From an uncultured Gammaproteobacteria bacterium (lineage in GTDB: Bacteria; Patescibacteriota; Microgenomatia; UBA12405; JAHJSD01): DNA of 64,000 nt. Below are positions 10,212 through 18,503 of this stretch, piece by piece (positions within the stretch are counted from its first letter, which is position 1; each line of letters begins with the position of its first letter). The notes beneath the pieces were generated by a model that saw nothing but the letters and a program-made list of their open reading frames with translations, was not told the origin of the DNA and did not search any database. Made by a program: the position numbers and the translations under genes. The stretch is taken from positions 130,278-194,277 of the forward strand of contig CAZCGQ010000002.1 of the NCBI GenBank assembly GCA_964498425.1, given 5' to 3'.

Positions 10212-12071
10212 ATGGCACCAGTTCAGTTGAAGAATACTAAGGAAGGGGAGTTTAAGTTACTTGGATTGGGTGCTGGAACAACTAAAAACCAAACTGTTCT
10301 TTTCTATTCAGCCAACAACCAACAACAGCCGTTTAACATTGCTGTCGCCGATCAAAACGGCTTTAATTTTAAGCCAGTATCTCAGAAACTTAAATTTGGC
10401 TATTGGTGGCAGGAACCCTCCGCCGAAACCATCACCACAGATTATCGTCTCAGCCAAACTCGAAGAAACTATATTTTAACCTATCTTGAAAAAACCAACA
10501 GTCATTACCAACTAAAATACCGGCTGACCAAAAACTTAATCAATTGGTCAAAATCCAAAGCAATCCCGGAAATTGCTGAAGCTGGAATAAACTTGCCAAA
10601 AACCAAGACAATCATCTACGGCCGGAAAGAAATTAAAAAGGCAAATTTCGGTAAATTTTCAAATTCTGCTCTATCAAACAAGTCAATCTTTCAGCTCAAG
10701 GAAAGAGTACTTGGTCGAAGCAACTTTAAAATCAGCCAAATTTTCAATTTAAAACAAGGTTACCTAGCCCTATTCTATTGCTACCAAGATCCATACATTT
10801 TGTCATCCTACTCTTGGCTGCTTATGCTTCTTGACAAAAGCAAAGGCAATGAAATCCAATGGACAAAACAAATGCCAATTACTGGAACAATTCCTGATGC
10901 CAAAGACAAAAAAATTGGTGCCCTTGGTTCAGTTAAAATTAATGACCAGCTTATTTCCTATTGGCAGTTGGATAACCAAAAAATATATGCTCTATCTCAG
11001 CCATTTTTTGAAATCAATCAGGTTAAACCTCCAACCCCTTTCCCATACCTTAAAAAATTAGACCGCGCTCCCGAAAACCCAATTTTAAAGCCCCAGCCGG
11101 AAAACAACTGGGAGTCAAAACTTGTTTTCAATCCCTCAGCTATTGACGATGGCGAAAAAGTTCACTTAGTTTATCGAGCAATTGGAGATGATGATACTTC
11201 TTCATTTGGCTATGCCGTTTCTGAGGATGGAATAAACATTGATCAACGTTCAGACAAACCAATCTATCAACCCAGGGCGGATTTTGAAACTAACCCCCAA
11301 GCACCCCGCGTAGCCGCCAGGGAATTTATCTCTGGGGGAGGGGCAGGTGGATGTGAAGACCCAAAACTAACCAAGATAAAGGACAAAATTTACATGACTT
11401 ATACTGCCTGGGATGGGGCCAATCATCCCCGAGTAGCCTTAACTTCAATTAACAGTGATGATTTCTTTAATCAAATATGGAACTGGCAGCTGCCAGTTCT
11501 CATTTCACCTCCTAATGAAATTCACAAAAACTGGGCAATTTTCCCTAAAAAAATCAATGGTAAATACGCTATTCTTCACAGCCTTTCACCTGAAATTCTA
11601 GTTGATTATTTTGATAGCCTTGATTTTGATGGCGAGAACTTTATCGAAAGTTATTACCGCCCATCCGGCCGACAAAACAATTGGGATACTTGGGTTCGGG
11701 GACCCGGGCCAGCTCCAATTGCAACTGACGATGGCTGGCTAATCCTATACCACGCTATGGATAAAAGAGACCCCAACCGATACAAACTGGGGGCGATGAT
11801 TGTTGACAAAAATGATCCAACAGAAATACTTTACCGCTCAAATACGCCCCTGCTTGAACCAGATATGGACTACGAAAACGAAGGCTTTAAGGCAGGAGTT
11901 GTTTATTCCTGTGGAGCAGTAGTCAGAAATGACCGCCTCTTGGTTTATTACGGTGGAGCGGACACAGTCAGCTGTGTTGCCCAAATAAAGCTTGACCAAC
12001 TGCTAAACCAAATGAAACTTGATCAAGAAATTCGGCTTAGACCAGCCAAGCCTGTTTTTATGTATAATTGA
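10212..12071 (+). CDS. GH130-like (DUF377 / glycosidase-related 5-bladed beta-propeller) protein with a ~290-aa N-terminal extension
   Basis: The C-terminal ~320 aa carries the GH130 hallmarks: NPILKP, WESKLVFNPSAI, GCEDPKLTKI...YMTYTAWDG and YYGGADT. The N-terminal region is unassigned and possibly a degenerate propeller. Confidence 0.6.
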   Translation: MAPVQLKNTKEGEFKLLGLGAGTTKNQTVLFYSANNQQQPFNIAVADQNGFNFKPVSQKLKFGYWWQEPSAETITTDYRLSQTRRNYILTYLEKTNSHYQLKYRLTKNLINWSKSKAIPEIAEAGINLPKTKTIIYGRKEIKKANFGKFSNSALSNKSIFQLKERVLGRSNFKISQIFNLKQGYLALFYCYQDPYILSSYSWLLMLLDKSKGNEIQWTKQMPITGTIPDAKDKKIGALGSVKINDQLISYWQLDNQKIYALSQPFFEINQVKPPTPFPYLKKLDRAPENPILKPQPENNWESKLVFNPSAIDDGEKVHLVYRAIGDDDTSSFGYAVSEDGINIDQRSDKPIYQPRADFETNPQAPRVAAREFISGGGAGGCEDPKLTKIKDKIYMTYTAWDGANHPRVALTSINSDDFFNQIWNWQLPVLISPPNEIHKNWAIFPKKINGKYAILHSLSPEILVDYFDSLDFDGENFIESYYRPSGRQNNWDTWVRGPGPAPIATDDGWLILYHAMDKRDPNRYKLGAMIVDKNDPTEILYRSNTPLLEPDMDYENEGFKAGVVYSCGAVVRNDRLLVYYGGADTVSCVAQIKLDQLLNQMKLDQEIRLRPAKPVFMYN

Positions 12072-12075
12072 AACA

Positions 12076-13044
12076 ATGATCATTGTCAGCCGCAGTTCAG
12101 CCAACCCAATTTTAAAACCAAATTCAGACAACATCTGGGAATCAAAAGCTGTCTTCAACGGCAATCCCGTCAAAACTAATGGGAAATACAGCTTAATCTA
12201 CCGTGGATTATCTCAAAAAATAAACCATCAAAATCAAGAAATGGAGTTGTCAACTATTGGAAAAGCAACTAGTTCCGATGGTATTAAATTTGACAACCGC
12301 CAGCAATTTATAAAGCCGGAAAAAGAATGGGAACTCTTTGGCTTAGAGGATCCACGGGTGACCAAATTTAACGATAAATATTACATTTTTTATACTGCCG
12401 TCAGTGCCTATCCACCCAATCCATCAGTCATTAAAGTTGGCTTGGCAATCAGTAAGGATATGAAGACAATAGAGGAAAAATACCTCGTTACTCCCTTTAA
12501 TGCTAAATCAATGACCATGTTTCCTGAAAAAATTAACGGCAAAGTATCCGGACTATTGGCCGTTGATACTGATACCCCGCCCGCCAAAATTGCCTTTGTT
12601 CAATTTGACCAAATTGAAGATATCTGGAATCACCAGATCTGGAATCAGTGGTATAAAAACGTCGATCAACATACTATTTCCTTGCAACGTCGCCCTCAGG
12701 ACCATGTTGAAATAGGTGCTTGCCCAATAAAAACATCCCAAGGTTGGTTATTAATTTACAGTTATATAAATAATTACCAAAATACAGATAAGCGCATCTT
12801 CACTGTTGAAGCCGCTCTTTTAGACAAAAAAAATCCCGAGAAAATAATCGGCCGATCAAAATTTCCTCTGTTAGTTCCCGAGAAAAAATATGAGCTGGAA
12901 GGAATGATTCCGGATATTGTATTTCCTTCTGGAGCCTTGGTAAAAAACAATCAACTACTTATTTATTACGGCGCCGCCGACAATTACTGCTGTCTGGCTA
13001 GCTGTTCATTATCAAATTTATTAGAGGAGCTGACCAATGATTAA
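12076..13044 (+). CDS. GH130-like beta-propeller glycoside phosphorylase/hydrolase family protein (paralog 2)
   Basis: Carries NPILKPNSDNIWESKAVFNG, GLEDPRVTKFNDKYYIFYTA and YYGAADN. Start moved to ATG 12076 (MIIVSRSS...) to avoid a 50-nt overlap. Confidence 0.65.
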   Translation: MIIVSRSSANPILKPNSDNIWESKAVFNGNPVKTNGKYSLIYRGLSQKINHQNQEMELSTIGKATSSDGIKFDNRQQFIKPEKEWELFGLEDPRVTKFNDKYYIFYTAVSAYPPNPSVIKVGLAISKDMKTIEEKYLVTPFNAKSMTMFPEKINGKVSGLLAVDTDTPPAKIAFVQFDQIEDIWNHQIWNQWYKNVDQHTISLQRRPQDHVEIGACPIKTSQGWLLIYSYINNYQNTDKRIFTVEAALLDKKNPEKIIGRSKFPLLVPEKKYELEGMIPDIVFPSGALVKNNQLLIYYGAADNYCCLASCSLSNLLEELTND

Positions 13045-13984
13045 ACTTAAACGCTACGTCAATAACCCAATTCTTAATCCCATTCCTGAACATGATTGGG
13101 AAGCAAAGGCAGTTTTTAACACTGCCGCAATATATCTCGATAACCAAGCCCACTTAGTTTATCGAGCAATGGGCCATGACAATATTTCTACTTTCGGCTA
13201 CGCCTCGAGCTCAGATGGAATAAAAATTGATACCCGCTTAGCCGAACCCATCTATCAACCAAGAATTGAGGAAGAAAAAACAAAAAATCCCGGTGGGAAT
13301 TCTGGCTGTGAAGACCCAAGAATTACCCGAATAGGGGATACCTTATACATGACTTACACCGCCTACGATGGAGTTAACCCAACCCGGGTTGCTTTAACAA
13401 CAATATCAGTAGAAGATTTTCTTAATCACAATTGGAACTGGTCCGTTCCAAAAATCATTACGCCTCCGGGCATCGACAGCAAAAACTCCTGTGTTTTACC
13501 AGAAATAATTGACGGTAAATACTATATTTTCCATCGTTTTTATCCCTGCATCTGGATTGACGCTGTTGAAGACTTAAACTTTGGTGAAAACGACTGGGTC
13601 AAGGGCAGTGCCTGGATTAAACCAAGAAGCGATAAATGGGACAGCCGAAAAATTGGCATTGCTGGCCCGCCAATAAAAACCGATCACGGCTGGCTGCTTA
13701 TTTACCATGCCATCAGCGAAGCCGACCGCCATTACCGCTTAGGGGCGATTCTCCTCAAGCTCGACAATCCCACCCAAACTTTGGCAAGAACTGACTATTA
13801 TCTTCTTGAACCAAGAATGGAGTTTGAACTAAACGGCCAAGAAGATGATGTTGTTTTCTCCTGCGGCCAAGTAGTTATCGACGATATTTTATACGTCTAT
13901 TACGGCGGAGCCGACAAATCGATCGGCATTGCTGCCTGCAGTTTCACAGAATTAGTCAATAAATTAACCAAGGTTCAAACCTAA
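13037..13984 (+). CDS. GH130-like beta-propeller glycoside phosphorylase/hydrolase family protein (paralog 3)
   Basis: Carries NPILNPIPEHDWEAKAVFN, GCEDPRITRIGDTLYMTYTAYDG and YYGGADK. Confidence 0.65.
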   Translation: MIKLKRYVNNPILNPIPEHDWEAKAVFNTAAIYLDNQAHLVYRAMGHDNISTFGYASSSDGIKIDTRLAEPIYQPRIEEEKTKNPGGNSGCEDPRITRIGDTLYMTYTAYDGVNPTRVALTTISVEDFLNHNWNWSVPKIITPPGIDSKNSCVLPEIIDGKYYIFHRFYPCIWIDAVEDLNFGENDWVKGSAWIKPRSDKWDSRKIGIAGPPIKTDHGWLLIYHAISEADRHYRLGAILLKLDNPTQTLARTDYYLLEPRMEFELNGQEDDVVFSCGQVVIDDILYVYYGGADKSIGIAACSFTELVNKLTKVQT

Positions 13985-14564: not shown

Positions 14565-14571
14565 AAGAAAA

Positions 14572-14631
14572 CATTGCTTACTATCTGTAGCTTTAGCGAA
14601 ATATTGCTTGCTATCTGTAGCTTTAGCGAAA
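14572..14631. repeat. Tandem duplication of a 30-bp unit (2 copies, 2 mismatches) at the 3-prime flank of tRNA-Tyr
   Basis: CATTGCTTACTATCTGTAGCTTTAGCGAAA followed by TATTGCTTGCTATCTGTAGCTTTAGCGAAA, seen directly. Confidence 0.8.
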
Positions 14632-14636
14632 GATAG

Positions 14637-14718
14637 TCCAGGGGGTAGGATTCGAACCTACGTAGGGAAACCCGACGGTTTTACAGACCGTTCCATTTGG
14701 CCACTCTGGCACCCCTGG
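14637..14718 (-). tRNA. tRNA-Tyr (anticodon GTA), class II with a long variable arm and an unusual C1:G72 first pair
   Basis: Reverse complement CCAGGGG-TG-CCAGAGTGGCCAAATGGA-ACGGT/CTGTAAA/ACCGT-CGGGTTTCCCTAC-GTAGG/TTCGAAT/CCTAC-CCCCTGG-A. It aligns almost position-for-position with E. coli tRNA-Tyr, but the acceptor stem begins C1:G72. CCA is not encoded. Confidence 0.8.
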
Positions 14719-14878
14719 TTGAAACCAAATCTGACTTGGTAGGTGTTATTCTATAATGCTCAGCTGCTAATTGCAAAATAAAACTACGTTATCTTTAAAA
14801 ACTATAATTGACGCTTTAGGTCTAGGTAATTCAGAAGTTGTCACTTTTATCCTCGTACGACGGGAAATAACTACTGCA

Positions 14879-15547
14879 TTATAAGACTAGATAATTTTCG
14901 ATATTTAAATAAAATTCTGTTAAAAACCGACAAATATTATCATTTTCTTTTAGTTTACAAATAATTCGATTAATCTCTTCATAATCCTTTGAGCCCAGTG
15001 AAGTTAAGAAAATTTTTCTAGACTCAGTCGAGGGAGGAACAGACAAATGTTCAAGCAAGATTTGGTACCACTGCGTAACCACATCCTTATTAATATTCAA
15101 CCATTCGTCATTACTATCCCAAGCTTCTCGAAAATATCGAATATAATCCGGTCTGTTTTCAATCCAATTATAAACCAATTCATCTTCCAAGTACTTTAAA
15201 CAGCTATTAACAATTTTTATCTTCTTATTGGAGTGGAAAATTAACGGCAAATCTACCCCCAATGATAATTTAATTTCTTTAAATAGAAATTCTTGGTTTT
15301 CTTTAAAGTAATTAACCCGAACTAGGTCAATTAAACTATGAAAATAAACACCCGCCTGAAAATCAGGTTGGGCTCTTGCCTCTTTCAAATCTACCTTTCT
15401 AAGATGAGTTAAAAACCTATCCAAATTAGCTAAGTAACGAATATCGGGGAAGTTATTACCTAAAAAGAACTTATGCTTATTTTTGGCCGCGAAGTAACGG
15501 GGATAACACCTCTCTGCCACCATAACGTGGGTTATCTCTGCCGCCAT
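14879..15547 (-). CDS. Hypothetical protein (222 aa)
   Basis: ORF only. No motif recognised. Confidence 0.4.
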   Translation of the reverse strand: MAAEITHVMVAERCYPRYFAAKNKHKFFLGNNFPDIRYLANLDRFLTHLRKVDLKEARAQPDFQAGVYFHSLIDLVRVNYFKENQEFLFKEIKLSLGVDLPLIFHSNKKIKIVNSCLKYLEDELVYNWIENRPDYIRYFREAWDSNDEWLNINKDVVTQWYQILLEHLSVPPSTESRKIFLTSLGSKDYEEINRIICKLKENDNICRFLTEFYLNIENYLVL

Positions 15548-15610
15548 TGATAATTATAACAAATAAATTTTGTGGTTTAAATGGAGTAGGGGAGTGCTGA
15601 AAAAAAGATC

Positions 15611-15639
15611 TTGACAGTTTCACGGCAAAAGTTTAAAAT
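15611..15639 (+). promoter_or_regulatory. Sigma-70-like promoter TTGACA-17 bp-TAAAAT
   Basis: TTGACA at 15611-15616, a 17-nt spacer, then TAAAAT at 15634-15639. This predicts a TSS near 15646. Confidence 0.5.
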
Positions 15640-15646
15640 AAGTTAA

Positions 15647-15990
15647 CATTTTAATAAAGGCAGTGACGAGTGGTGAAGTAGAGAAGAAAACGGTAACTAG
15701 AGAGTAAGCGGTTGGTGAAAGCTTACCAAGTTTTCAAATCGAATTACCCACTTCGAGCCGAAAGGTTAAAAGCCTTTCCGGGAGTGCCCGTAACAGCACA
15801 AACGTGTGTCACATTTAGTTCCGCAATTGCGGAACAGGAACGGAGCACGTAATAAAGAGTCTTTATTGCAACCGTTCTCCGAGTGACATCGGAGATTTTT
15901 TTGTGCTAGCAATAAGGAGAAACAAGGTGGTACAGCGAGTTAAACCCTCGCCCTTGATCGAGTTAAACTCGACCGGGGCGAGGGTTTTTA
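15647..15990 (+). promoter_or_regulatory. T-box-like riboswitch leader (~345 nt) preceding the hypothetical-protein + tyrS operon
   Basis: A T-box-like sequence AAGGUGGUACAGCGAG lies at 15924-15939. Its UGGU bulge is complementary to the A73-CCA end of the local tRNA-Tyr. A possible antiterminator (GCGAG..CTCGC) is mutually exclusive with the downstream terminator. AGAGA and GGUGAAAGC stem-I-like elements are present. A candidate UAC (Tyr) specifier lies at 15745-15747. Confidence 0.4.
15945..15989 (+). terminator. Intrinsic terminator/attenuator hairpin 2 nt upstream of the start codon; it also sequesters the RBS
   Basis: CCCTCGCCC (15945-15953) pairs with GGGCGAGGG (15976-15984), followed by TTTTT. 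The RBS GAGGG (15980-15984) lies inside the 3-prime arm, 8 nt from ATG 15992. Confidence 0.6.
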
Positions 15991-15991
15991 T

Positions 15992-17332
15992 ATGAGGGAA
16001 ATTATGAAAAATAGAATACCACCAGGACCAGATGGAACAAAAAGGTTAAATCTTTTTGGAACAACAATCAACGTTGATAAGTTACCACACCAACCGGAAC
16101 CATCCTCCCCGGTAGGGAAATTAATGTCGGAACTTGAGGGCCATCAAGAAGATCTAATTTCAATATTATTTAACACTGAGCCAAGTGAACAAGAAAAAGT
16201 CCAAGCAGTAAAAACTAAAACAAATCAAATAATTAGACCCTTTCAGCAACCAGACCCAAGTAATCCCTTTGGTTCAATCTGGGGAGAAATAACTGCACAA
16301 ATAGCGGCAAATCGTCTTAACTGGTCAAGGAAAAAAATTCAAACTCACTTGTCCAGGGCTGAGCCAAGTCCGGCAAAAACCGAACAAGGTTTAGCATCAG
16401 CGTTACTAATTCAAAAAATCAATGAAAGGTTAACAGGTCGGGGAAAAGAACTTGCCCAAAGAGAACGGCTTGAAAGAAAACTAAACGCCTGGGTAGATTG
16501 GGCCAGACAGTTCGGCTGTAATCAGGAACAAGCTCAAAAAGTAACTTTATGTACTGCCAAACTTCAACTGCTTCAACCGGAAGGAGGCAAAATAATAAAT
16601 CTTAAAAGGTTAGTCGAATTATTATCTAATGGAATTCAAGGACAAACAGTTAATTTAATTCGATTGCAATGTCTTCCAACAATAAATTCCAAAAAAGGCA
16701 CCCAAGTTTCCGACAAAATGCTGACTAAAGCCCCATTACCAAGTGCAGGATTTGTGACAGTCGACCAACGGGAAGAAATAAAACCAATAAAAACAATTTC
16801 TGAGACATTAAGTCAGTTTGAAATAAATCATTCCCTAACCTTTCTGATAGTTGATATCGACTGCTTCATCCTTGATGATAGAAGCTTAGTAGAAAAAGCC
16901 GAAAAATTTGAAACAAGACTAGATAATCTGTTAAAAAGTCACTTCGCTAATGTAAACGTAACTAGATTAAGCAAAACCGCAGGTTTAGATAGTCCGAGAG
17001 AAGTCCTAACCTCATCAACAGTTTCAGAAATCATTAACAATCCTTTTCAATTATTATCACCCCTAGAGTTAGAAAGACGAACCGAAAAAATGAGAGAAAA
17101 ACTTTCTTGCATGGCAGTTCCTAGTGAAACTAAGACCTTTTCTTCCGCTCAAGAATTAACAATAAGGGAGTTTGCTATCGACTTCTGGATTGGCGAAAAA
17201 TTTGGAGGGAAAAAAGAAGCAATTTTTATCAGAAGAACTAAATCTCTTCAGGCAGCTAGTGAAACCTTTCTTCGCGGGGCTAAACAACAATCACCTCCAT
17301 TTATTGCTTTTTGGACAAATAGATTTGCATGA
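15992..17332 (+). CDS. Hypothetical protein (446 aa), first gene of the tyrS operon
   Basis: Long ORF with coding-like composition and no recognisable motifs. Its stop is 20 nt from the tyrS start. Confidence 0.5.
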   Translation: MREIMKNRIPPGPDGTKRLNLFGTTINVDKLPHQPEPSSPVGKLMSELEGHQEDLISILFNTEPSEQEKVQAVKTKTNQIIRPFQQPDPSNPFGSIWGEITAQIAANRLNWSRKKIQTHLSRAEPSPAKTEQGLASALLIQKINERLTGRGKELAQRERLERKLNAWVDWARQFGCNQEQAQKVTLCTAKLQLLQPEGGKIINLKRLVELLSNGIQGQTVNLIRLQCLPTINSKKGTQVSDKMLTKAPLPSAGFVTVDQREEIKPIKTISETLSQFEINHSLTFLIVDIDCFILDDRSLVEKAEKFETRLDNLLKSHFANVNVTRLSKTAGLDSPREVLTSSTVSEIINNPFQLLSPLELERRTEKMREKLSCMAVPSETKTFSSAQELTIREFAIDFWIGEKFGGKKEAIFIRRTKSLQAASETFLRGAKQQSPPFIAFWTNRFA

Positions 17333-17351
17333 AAGGGTTCGAAAAGATAAA

Positions 17352-18503
17352 ATGAAGAAGATGGATATCGATCAGATAATTAATTTAATTACCAGAAATT
17401 GTGAGGAGGTAATGACCAAAGATGACCTCCAAAAACTAATTAAATCCGAAACTAAATTAAATCACTACATTGGCTTTGAGATATCCGGCATGGTTCATCT
17501 CGGAACCGGCTTAATGTCAATGGGAAAAATTGCTGACTTTTTGCAAGCGGGAATTAAATGTACTATTTTATTAGCTGATTTTCACTCCTACCTTAATAAC
17601 AAGCTTGGCGGGAACTGGGAAAACATTCGAAAGGCAACCAATGCCTATTTCAAAGAAGGCTTAATTGCCTCTCTTAAATGTTTTGATATTGACGTCGATC
17701 AAATAATCTCTACTGAACAATTACAATTTGTCATGGGAAAAAACTTATACGAAAACAACCTTATCCACTGGGAAACCTTTATGGAAGTTGGCAAACATCT
17801 CACCCTGGCTAGAAACCTCCGATCAATTTCGATTATGGGAAAAAAAGAAGGAGAAAGTGTTGATATGGCAACCCTATTTTATCCCCCCCTGCAAGTAGCC
17901 GATATTTTTACTCTTCAAGCTAATCTTGTTCATGCCGGCATCGATCAACGCAAGGCACACGCTAATGCCCGAGATGTCGCCGACAAAATTACCATCAACC
18001 CTTTAAAAAACGACCAAGGGGAAATCATTTCTCCCGTCGCTGTTCACCACAATACCATTGCTGGATTAGAAGGACCGAAGACAAAAAAAGAAACGGGCGA
18101 AGAGCTGAAAATGAGCAAATCCAAACCGAAATCAGCGATTTTTATTCACGATACCCCGGAGGAAATAAATGAAAAAATTAAATCTGCTTACTGCCCACCG
18201 CAAGAAATTGCCTATAATCCAATCATCAACTGGGTAGAAACCCTAATTTTCTGGGGAGCGGATAGAGTAGAGGAGGGGTTAAAAATTAACCGAGAAGAAA
18301 AGCACGGAGGCAAAATAGAATACCAGGAAATTGATCGGTTAAAGCAAGACTATCAATCCGGTAAATTACACCCACTAGATTTAAAAAATGCTGTAGCCAG
18401 CTGGTTAATTAATAAACTTAAACCGGCAAGAATTCACTTCCAGAAAGGAAAAGCGAAAGAGGGATTGGAGTTAATGAAGGATTTAGTAAACAGTAATAAG
18501 TAA
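17352..18503 (+). CDS. tyrS: Tyrosyl-tRNA synthetase, archaeal/eukaryotic type (class Ic)
   Basis: YIGFEISGMVHLGTGL...ILLADFHSYLN, KMSKS, and C-terminal ELHPLDLKNAVASWLINKLKPAR align closely with M. jannaschii TyrRS (YIGFEPSGKIHLGH...ILLADLHAYLN; ELHPMDLKNAVAEELIKILEPIR). Start at ATG 17352 (MKKMDIDQI). Confidence 0.85.
   Translation: MKKMDIDQIINLITRNCEEVMTKDDLQKLIKSETKLNHYIGFEISGMVHLGTGLMSMGKIADFLQAGIKCTILLADFHSYLNNKLGGNWENIRKATNAYFKEGLIASLKCFDIDVDQIISTEQLQFVMGKNLYENNLIHWETFMEVGKHLTLARNLRSISIMGKKEGESVDMATLFYPPLQVADIFTLQANLVHAGIDQRKAHANARDVADKITINPLKNDQGEIISPVAVHHNTIAGLEGPKTKKETGEELKMSKSKPKSAIFIHDTPEEINEKIKSAYCPPQEIAYNPIINWVETLIFWGADRVEEGLKINREEKHGGKIEYQEIDRLKQDYQSGKLHPLDLKNAVASWLINKLKPARIHFQKGKAKEGLELMKDLVNSNK

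Follow-up and report, generated by a model that had tools for sequence, protein, structure and literature searches.

The 64,000-nucleotide stretch of DNA analyzed here (hereafter the window; positions 130,278 to 194,277 of contig CAZCGQ010000002.1, assembly GCA_964498425.1) carries a gene for a tyrosyl-tRNA synthetase (TyrRS) of the archaeal/eukaryal type and a gene for a tRNA-Tyr with an archaeal-type acceptor end on a bacterial body. Ahead of the TyrRS gene are a T-box leader and an open reading frame (ORF446) for a protein that contains no tyrosine. We consider it quite probable that the TyrRS and tRNA form a hybrid pair under T-box operon control in a Candidate Phyla Radiation (CPR) bacterium, that a bacterial tyrS was displaced, and that ORF446 is functionally linked to tyrosine. 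The pair itself is already known, as a member of a class described in 2017 (Mukai et al., 2017), and the preliminary description of this DNA, in which the pair was recognized from the sequence, was correct. The T-box leader, ORF446 and the conservation of the operon had gone unnoticed in that description. What appears to be new here is a T-box operon that outlived an inter-domain synthetase swap and that carries a tyrosine-free, synthetase-like protein family.

Within the listed open reading frame (17172-18503, plus strand), the ATG at 17352 is the likely start of TyrRS, because the alignments of homologues and of the P. horikoshii TyrRS begin there; the predicted protein (17352-18503) is 383 aa long. 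The gene call in an independent assembly begins at a later methionine (363 aa; P0001, locus L095), so that an exact look-up with the 383-aa form gave no match. Pfam identifies PF00579 (tRNA-synt_1b) alone, with no C-terminal S4-like domain. With the NCBIfam model for archaeal/eukaryal-type TyrRS (NF006330, PRK08560) the protein reaches 371 bits (cut-off 220), and with the bacterial tyrS model TIGR00234 it reaches 96 (cut-off 113.8). The top sequence matches in the PDB are archaeal (2cyc at E = 1.9e-103, 7fg6 and 2cya), followed by eukaryotic and M. jannaschii enzymes, and the alignment with 2cyc (P. horikoshii, 375 aa) spans the protein from end to end. No bacterial TyrRS was found among PDB sequences at E≤1e-3, and a BLASTP comparison with E. 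coli TyrS (NC_000913.3) was not significant (E = 0.056). The model score, the PDB matches and the null BLASTP result bear out the earlier assignment of the enzyme to the archaeal type rather than to bacterial TyrS/TyrZ. The motifs quoted in its support (HYIGFEISGMVHLG, ILLADFHSYLNN, KMSKS and KLHPLDLKNAVA) are all found, with HIGH in the form HLGT. The presence of KMSKS instead of KMSSS, pointed out as a departure, is real, but it is not unusual because 2cyc has KMSKS too; it is normal for long archaeal TyrRS. The closest named homologues are from Candidatus Shapirobacteria (Microgenomates) and from the "Patescibacteria group".

In M. jannaschii TyrRS, the residues that read C1:G72 are Arg132, Arg174 and Lys175 (PMC1934993). 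Alignment of the M. jannaschii reference (identical to 1j1u_A) with 120 homologues places these at R157, R200 and K201 of the window TyrRS, and they are invariant in the 120 homologues. The tyrosine pocket is kept (M. jannaschii Y32, Y151, Q155, D158 and Q173 are Y39, Y177, Q181, D184 and Q199 in the window), and the G34-binding Asp286 is conserved as D343. The catalytic core is 37% identical to that of the M. jannaschii enzyme, which with its tRNA serves as an orthogonal pair in genetic-code expansion. Unlike that enzyme, the window TyrRS is of the long type (383 aa, like 2cyc) with KMSKS, its tRNA is of bacterial class II, and the pair is native to a bacterium. Fusions occur in some members of the TyrRS clade: P0014 (554 aa) and P0071 (505 aa) carry either a YbaK-type editing domain (PF04073) or a tRNA-binding domain (PF01588), beyond the TyrRS fusions with a B2 domain that were reported in 2017.

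The tRNA-Tyr(GUA) gene is on the minus strand at 14637-14718, identified by Rfam RF00005 (14637-14718, 56.2 bits) and by ARAGORN (14636-14718, GTA). In the RF00005 alignment the acceptor stem is formed by CCAGGGG and CCCCUGG followed by A, giving C1:G72, C2:G71, A3:U70 and A73. The variable region is 13 nt long and has a 3-bp stem (GGG-UUU-CCC), as in a class II body, and the CCA end is not encoded in the gene. The agreement of the two programs on the ends, with pair 1:72 remaining C:G, confirms the C1:G72 pair, A73 and long variable arm (V-arm) of the preliminary description. Also confirmed is its statement that this is the only tRNA-Tyr in the window; ARAGORN finds three tRNAs, the other two being Ala-CGC and Leu-CAA. 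The tRNA had further been said to align base for base with E. coli tRNA-Tyr. The alignment is indeed gapless, but the identity is only 57/82 (70%), with 72% in the body. Outside the acceptor stem, the body is 65-73% identical to bacterial V-arm tRNA-Tyr versus 57-63% to short C1:G72 tRNAs. Thus, C1:G72, A73 and GUA are shared with archaeal and eukaryotic tRNA-Tyr, without their class I body and short variable loop, whereas the class II long variable arm is shared with bacterial tRNA-Tyr, without G1:C72. Because of its long variable arm this tRNA is a hybrid and not an archaeal tRNA. The same tRNA-Tyr type occurs in five relatives (L007, L009, L055, L074 and L098), with covariation at pair 7:66. 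The gap that separates the tRNA-Tyr, at its 3' end, from a GNAT acetyltransferase gene is occupied by a tandem direct repeat (14569-14628; two 30-nt copies, 93% identity; AAAYATTGCTTRCTATCTGTAGCTTTAGCG).

The survey covered 13 genome loci and 80 metagenome loci with this TyrRS type (L001-L093; 61-82% identity). A flanking tRNA-Tyr was found in eight of them, and all nine tRNAs, the window included, have C1:G72 and A73; five carry a V-arm and four a short variable loop. In six relatives the tRNA-Tyr is 20-60 nt upstream of TyrRS on the same strand. Seven of the surveyed records (L001, L002, L004, L005, L007, L008 and L013) hold a CPR-type locus under the title "uncultured Gammaproteobacteria bacterium", which looks like a default or erroneous label. 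When canonical tRNAs from all loci are counted, with two G1•U72 tRNA(GUA) of archaeal-type loci left out as a separate class, C1:G72 is present in 10/10 tRNA-Tyr linked to archaeal-type TyrRS and G1:C72 in 4/4 linked to bacterial-type tyrS (Fisher p = 0.001). Synthetase type and pair 1:72 thus co-vary perfectly in the relatives. Together, the tRNA ends, the TyrRS type, this co-variation and the conserved C1:G72-reading residues support the proposal, made in the preliminary description, of a co-adapted enzyme-tRNA pair that followed synthetase replacement. Since the tRNA body is bacterial class II, the simplest history is that a bacterial tRNA had its pair 1:72 flipped. In their own cell the TyrRS and tRNA-Tyr presumably are a working pair, not the orthogonal one to which they had been likened.

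CPR bacteria with an archaea/eukarya-type TyrRS and a C1-G72 tRNA-Tyr have been published (Mukai, Reynolds, Crnkovic & Soll, 2017, Life 7:8, PMC5370408). The groups in that paper are Parcubacteria, Microgenomates, Dojkabacteria and Katanobacteria, with Shapirobacteria among the representative groups. The C1-G72 tRNA-Tyr often retains its V-arm, indicating bacterial ancestry of the tRNA, and V-arm-less tRNA-Tyr in some lineages and TyrRS fusion variants were also reported (PMC5370408). The window pair is an instance of what that paper describes, from the same radiation and with Shapirobacteria among the groups listed; the text of the 2017 paper mentions no T-box leader, TyrRS partner ORF, tRNA-TyrRS cassettes or G1•U72 tRNA(GUA) (PMC5370408).

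Cross-contamination between CPR and DPANN bins is known to occur (PMC5370408), and a pair such as this could in principle be an artefact of DPANN contamination, of a chimeric assembly or of a mis-called tRNA 5' end. This explanation is effectively refuted. The window encodes bacterial gyrB, gyrA, dnaX, a PilB-type ATPase and others, with gyrB and gyrA only ~1.4 kb downstream of TyrRS, and the TyrRS gene sits inside a bacterial operon, its start 19 nt past ORF446 and behind a T-box. The same gene order is present in an independent assembly (L095, Logan SRR15425351) and is repeated in L096, L103 and L104; the ends of the tRNA are agreed upon by two tRNA finders. Given the bacterial genes and the order conserved in the independent assembly, contamination or chimerism is very unlikely.

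The leader was found on the plus strand at 15654-15958 by an Rfam scan without the gathering cut-off (RF00230, 86.2 bits, E of 2e-19 to 3e-17 depending on search size). Just upstream is a sigma-70-type promoter, TTGACA-17-TAAAAT (15611-15639, plus strand), which matches 11/12 consensus positions and whose -35 and -10 elements are conserved in L096 and L104. The parts of the leader include a full-length Stem I (a UGA/GA K-turn, a GAAU-UAC-C specifier loop and a distal AGAGAG/GGUUGGUGAAAGC platform), Stem II, a Stem III region and an antiterminator. In the cmscan alignment the specifier loop has GAAUUACCC on its 3' side (15741-15749, plus strand), with the specifier codon UAC (Tyr) at 15745-15747. 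This codon is complementary to the GUA anticodon, and the downstream gene is tyrosine-specific. The same alignment places the antiterminator, AAGG[UGGUACA]GCGAG...CUCGCCCUU, at 15924-15955 (plus strand) and its UGGU bulge, which is complementary to the A73-C-C-A end of the tRNA, at 15928-15931. Folded alone, the antiterminator forms a canonical bulged helix (-10.2 kcal/mol). The intrinsic terminator (15942-15989, plus strand; inverted repeat I3) has 12-nt perfect arms, AAACCCUCGCCC and GGGCGAGGGUUU, followed by a U-tract (-33.6 kcal/mol, z -5.9). The antiterminator, in its 3' half, shares CUCGCCC with the 5' arm of the terminator, and with this overlap the two structures are mutually exclusive.

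Seven homologous full-length leaders were found, three of which exceed the Rfam gathering score of 93 (L100 at 107.3, L097 at 97.2 and L098 at 94.2 bits). Among the leaders the flanking helices vary, whereas the specifier string is the same in 7/8; L097 has AAAUUACCC. The alternative specifier readings UUA, ACC and CCC were set aside because the covariation-defined helix and the standard frame give UAC plus one unpaired nucleotide in 8/8 leaders, and also because the linked tRNA and synthetase are both tyrosine-specific. The leaders of the window, L096 and L104 are ~90% identical, in comparison with 42-44% for their ORFs, and nine compensatory pair changes separate them; the terminator changes in L096 and L104 are compensatory as well. 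Given this contrast and the nine compensatory pairs, the leader RNA is under strong constraint. As judged from its sequence and predicted folding, the leader is a T-box in every feature apart from the Rfam score threshold, which close homologues pass.

The founding example of a T-box is that of B. subtilis tyrS. Like the tyrS T-boxes of Gram-positive bacteria (RF00230), the window leader combines a promoter, a Stem I with K-turn, specifier loop and platform, a UGGN bulge, a competing terminator, UAC and a downstream tyrS. It differs in its CPR host, in the archaeal-type synthetase, in the ORF (in relatives also a tRNA gene) that separates leader and tyrS, in the C that follows the specifier and in a score just below the Rfam gathering value. 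In the open-access literature searched, we found no link of T-boxes to CPR, Patescibacteria or Microgenomates, to archaeal-type TyrRS or to tRNA genes as targets. Novelty is not proven by this, although the T-box operon context of an archaeal-type TyrRS appears new.

A different type of T-box, scoring 42-48 bits, was identified in L078 (2188-2530), L090 (1-560) and L091 (380-1020, identical to L092 9363-10003), and these are the only T-boxes among L001-L093. Their ultrashort Stem I is a hairpin with loop ACAUAAUACAC (UAC then A), and a terminator is present. The order downstream of the ultrashort T-box in L090 and L091 is small ORF, short-loop C1:G72 tRNA-Tyr, archaeal-type TyrRS; the T-box thus appears to control the gene of its own ligand.

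The history of the operon can be read from its relatives. Eight further members of the ORF446 family were looked up, and Rfam, ARAGORN and NCBIfam were run on the loci. The order in relatives is T-box, tRNA-Tyr, ORF446 homologue and tyrS, the TyrRS being of either bacterial or archaeal type. In four loci the T-box is followed by a V-arm G1:C72 tRNA(GUA), the ORF and a bacterial tyrS: L097 (T-box 97.2 bits), L099 (71.0 bits; the tyrS identified by TIGR00234, with a weak S4), L100 (107.3 bits) and L101 (86.4 bits). In L102 the contig begins at the V-arm G1:C72 tRNA(GUA) and ends after the ORF. The archaeal side is more varied. L096 has a T-box (83.4 bits), a short-loop G1•U72 tRNA(GUA), the ORF and an archaeal-type TyrRS; L098 has a T-box (94.2 bits), a short-loop G1•U72 tRNA(GUA), the ORF, a V-arm C1:G72 tRNA-Tyr and then the contig end. 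In L104 (T-box 70.0 bits), as in the window (86.2 bits), no tRNA follows the leader, and the ORF and archaeal-type TyrRS come next. The contig of L103 begins at the ORF, followed by a 74-aa ORF and an archaeal-type TyrRS that is 60% identical to the window enzyme. Inserts between the tyrosine-free ORF and tyrS are the 74-aa ORF of L103 (1348-1572) and, in L097 (1926-2492), a gene for an NYN-domain (RNase-like) protein. The two G1•U72 tRNA(GUA) genes, L096 521-592 (GCGCAGG/CCUGCGU) and L098 9895-9966 (GCGGGGG/CCCCCGU), immediately follow the T-box terminator. Both have A73 and a short variable loop, and they are 81% identical to each other with the wobble pair conserved; no such tRNA is present at the equivalent junction in the window or in L104.

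From the sister operons that combine a T-box, a G1:C72 V-arm tRNA-Tyr, an ORF446 homologue and a bacterial tyrS, we infer that the operon was ancestrally bacterial and that its tyrS was displaced by an archaeal-type gene. The latter would have been acquired laterally, with the regulation of the operon kept. Mukai et al. raised the possibility that the archaeal-type identity set is instead ancestral in CPR lineages, a relic resembling the last universal common ancestor, with no lateral transfer (PMC5370408). The TyrRS family is indeed large and diverse in the CPR (4,115 matches at E≤1e-20). We nevertheless find this very improbable, given the bacterial class II body of the tRNA, the bacterial T-box of the operon and the fact that sister lineages have this operon with a G1:C72 tRNA and a bacterial tyrS. 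The identities of ORF446 to its homologues, 28-44% where these are linked to archaeal-type TyrRS and 17-25% where linked to bacterial tyrS, also fit a single swap.

Sequence features, gene order, co-variation and fold similarity are direct observations; the aminoacylation specificity and the antitermination described next are predictions drawn from established T-box and TyrRS biology, and the function of ORF446 is likewise a prediction. The TyrRS, lacking the S4-like domain with which bacterial enzymes bind the variable arm, would read C1:G72, A73 and the GUA anticodon. The tRNA-Tyr would have kept its bacterial class II body and been fitted to the enzyme by inversion of the top acceptor pairs to C1:G72, and the V-arm is probably a passive leftover because the archaeal-type enzyme lacks an S4-like domain. 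When uncharged tRNA-Tyr accumulates, its GUA anticodon would pair with the UAC specifier, its elbow would dock on the Stem I platform and its free ACCA end would pair with the UGGU bulge. These contacts would stabilize the antiterminator over the -33.6 kcal/mol terminator, so that ORF446 and TyrRS are transcribed. In T-box-tRNA structures, the T-box contacts do not read tRNA pair 1:72 base-specifically. Because no T-box contact reads this pair, the riboswitch could have stayed unchanged during the swap of synthetase and acceptor end.

ORF446 (16004-17332, plus strand), into which the leader directly runs, is predicted to encode 442 aa from an ATG with the Shine-Dalgarno sequence GAGGGA; an alternative ATG is at 15992. 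It has no matches in Pfam, NCBIfam or PHROG, and no Pfam match even at E≤1. A word-indexed search of 5.8 billion proteins returned ORF446 itself and one 44%-identical protein, and an exhaustive HMMER search identified 24 family members among 1.84 billion cluster representatives. A word-indexed search with the family profile returned 3 members and nothing beyond the HMMER set, and searching PDB sequences with the profile gave only noise. The family, which is apparently undescribed, has the conserved motifs N.FGS.WNE.TA, LHCL.F.N....GI.V, SQ.D.L, DND.FV, KTR.FAR and LQR..A.QQA...F..GAK.

The most striking feature of the family is its composition. Tyrosine makes up 0/442 residues of ORF446, in comparison with a window background of 3.1% (P~1e-6 for ORF446 alone), and 0/8,418 residues in the aligned core of 25 family members, with Phe and Trp at normal levels. 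The sole tyrosines in the family fall within N-terminal extensions that are themselves doubtful; some of these overlap the tRNA gene upstream. The partner TyrRS proteins contain 1.6-3.0% Tyr, and the window TyrRS carries nine tyrosines. From the family-wide ban on tyrosine we infer that ORF446 must be made when Tyr-tRNA-Tyr is lacking.

An AlphaFold2 model of ORF446 from a 25-sequence alignment has a predicted local distance difference test score (pLDDT) of 91.4 and a predicted template modelling score of 0.83; it replaced an earlier model from a 2-sequence alignment (pLDDT 43.8). The model consists of a helical N-terminal domain (~190 aa) and an alpha/beta domain resembling that of class Ic aminoacyl-tRNA synthetases. 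In a Foldseek search of the PDB with this model, class Ic synthetase-fold proteins make up nearly all of the top 50 matches; the first ~47 are without exception TyrRS (among them those of A. fulgidus and M. jannaschii), TrpRS homologues, cyclodipeptide synthases or the tyrosine isonitrile synthases PvcA/PIsnA. A relation of ORF446 to class Ic synthetases would be at the level of the predicted fold only.

The most likely role, on which our confidence is evenly balanced, is that ORF446 binds tyrosine or tRNA-Tyr and acts as a helper or backup for TyrRS; this is suggested by the tyrosine ban combined with the fold similarity and the gene neighbours. The protein could be translated without Tyr-tRNA and would assist or back up TyrRS in tyrosine starvation. 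The same structural matches raise a second possibility, that ORF446 is a biosynthetic enzyme merely sharing the operon, either similar to a cyclodipeptide synthase and using Tyr-tRNA or similar to an isonitrile synthase and using L-Tyr. Cyclodipeptide synthases (AlbC and others) and PvcA/PIsnA, which bind aminoacyl-tRNA or L-tyrosine, are, with TyrRS and TrpRS, the best structural matches of the model. Those matched at a level equal to TyrRS include 6y4b (with bound Phe-tRNA), 5mlp, 3oqv and 9dh4 (with L-Tyr), and in relatives a tRNA-Tyr gene is immediately upstream of the ORF. However, a tyrosine-consuming pathway turned on by uncharged tRNA-Tyr would be counter-intuitive, no tailoring or biosynthetic genes are nearby, and the Pfam models for PvcA and cyclodipeptide synthase do not match ORF446. 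The latter also differs from these enzymes in lacking sequence similarity to them, in its larger size (~440 aa) and in being tyrosine-free. Cyclodipeptide synthases have conserved catalytic Ser, Tyr and Glu residues. A family with no tyrosine stands against a function of this kind, since those enzymes use catalytic tyrosines, and we regard the biosynthetic alternative as unlikely.

ORF446 has a partial parallel in the CPR operons with the order tRNA-Trp(A73)-ORF1-TrpRS-A1, in which ORF1 has no Trp (PMC5370408). ORF1 and, in relatives, the ORF446 homologue both have a cognate tRNA gene on one side and a class Ic synthetase on the other; both are free of the cognate amino acid and predicted to be class-I-synthetase-like. 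The likeness is by analogy only. The system differs in that it concerns tryptophan, whereas ORF446 belongs to tyrosine and is under a T-box. ORF1 was reported to lack a Rossmann fold (PMC5370408), while the best structural matches of the ORF446 model have the class Ic synthetase fold. No relevant later work on TrpRS-A or ORF1 came up in the open-access literature searched.

Several observations weigh against a hybrid pair in a T-box operon with a tyrosine-linked ORF446. The T-box leader falls below the Rfam gathering score (86.2 versus 93 bits), and the residue after the specifier is an unpaired C where a purine is usual. The window tRNA-Tyr is outside the T-box operon, on the opposite strand. 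An ORF446 homologue was found in 0/93 of the other archaeal-type TyrRS loci (L001-L093), and no T-box is present in the closest TyrRS relatives, L001 and L002; because of this, the T-box context must be considered a minority arrangement for archaeal-type TyrRS. For ORF446, the strength of the Foldseek matches is moderate (probability 0.84-1.00, best E 2.4e-3, template modelling scores of 0.3-0.5), hhalign finds no profile-profile similarity between the family and the TyrRS profile (probability 0.5%), and neither a HIGH nor a KMSKS motif is present in the family alignment. ORF446 also does not match PF00579 in Pfam. The idea that ORF446 is a decayed bacterial TyrS was rejected at the sequence level, on the grounds of a non-significant BLASTP comparison with E. 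coli TyrS, the lack of a Pfam match and the hhalign result.

The view of the genome is limited to 64 kb, from a contig at least 204 kb long, which also counts in favour of an auxiliary tyrosine system, that is, a TyrZ-like stress duplicate beside a canonical TyrS and G1:C72 tRNA-Tyr encoded elsewhere in the genome. The T-box control and tyrosine-free partner suggest a starvation-specific role that would suit such a duplicate, two relatives have two different tRNA(GUA) genes, and bacterial and archaeal TrpRS pairs coexist in one CPR bacterium (PMC5370408). We think this quite unlikely. The sole tRNA-Tyr of the window is C1:G72, as are 10/10 of those linked to this TyrRS type, tblastn finds no class Ic paralogue in the window, and CPR genomes are small. 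Moreover, the same operon slot in sisters holds an apparently housekeeping bacterial tyrS, and therefore replacement rather than addition is indicated.

A more far-reaching version of the proposed ORF446 function is that the family is a tyrosine-free, class Ic-fold offshoot acting directly on tRNA-Tyr, and that the module is a self-contained cassette for the rescue of tyrosine decoding. We put this forward tentatively and think it rather doubtful. If true, ORF446 would provide an emergency route that restores Tyr-tRNA-Tyr, or would stabilize or activate TyrRS, when tyrosine codons are untranslatable. This would break a deadlock, as TyrRS itself contains tyrosines. The short G1•U72 tRNA(GUA) of L096 and L098 might then be the dedicated substrate of ORF446 or a poorly chargeable, built-in inducer of the riboswitch, and a cassette of T-box, tRNA, ORF and tyrS could tolerate a swap of synthetases between domains of life.

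The pair is a textbook-breaking case, already published, of tRNA identity rules that are not hard-wired to the domains of life. The operon suggests a route for such a swap, in which a riboswitch reading the anticodon, elbow and ACCA end would keep regulating while synthetase and pair 1:72 change. The sister operons, "before" (bacterial tyrS, G1:C72) and "after" (archaeal TyrRS, C1:G72), constitute a natural experiment in synthetase replacement. ORF446 represents a new protein family whose structure is predicted with confidence, which excludes tyrosine absolutely and which is strictly linked to a Tyr T-box, tRNA-Tyr and tyrS. Two natural variants, the G1•U72 tRNA(GUA) and the C1:G72 tRNA with a V-arm, may be of use in orthogonality screens for genetic-code engineering.

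An open reading frame of 222 aa (14879-15547, minus strand), divergent from the operon, separates the tRNA-Tyr from the T-box promoter. Its one family match, to zinc-dependent phospholipase C, is below threshold (E = 0.038); it has no homologue in the 13 related genome loci, and it is present in the independent assembly L095. The possibility that ORF446 and this ORF (ORF222) are general partners of archaeal-type TyrRS was rejected, as tblastn found no homologue in L001-L013 and the ORF446 family is absent from L001-L093. Also present, upstream, are two genes of the GH130 (beta-1,4-mannooligosaccharide phosphorylase) family, at 10212-12071 and 13037-13984 (both plus strand), the first with a ~280-aa N-terminal extension that has no Pfam match. 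A tRNA with the amber-reading anticodon CUA is encoded in two related metagenome loci (L063 6911-6986 and L064 1171-1246) and has G1:C72, A73 and an encoded CCA; ARAGORN labels it "Pyl" from the anticodon alone. This tRNA is ~3 kb upstream of TyrRS and is flanked by an inverted repeat (GGAGAGTATGG...CCATACTCTCC).

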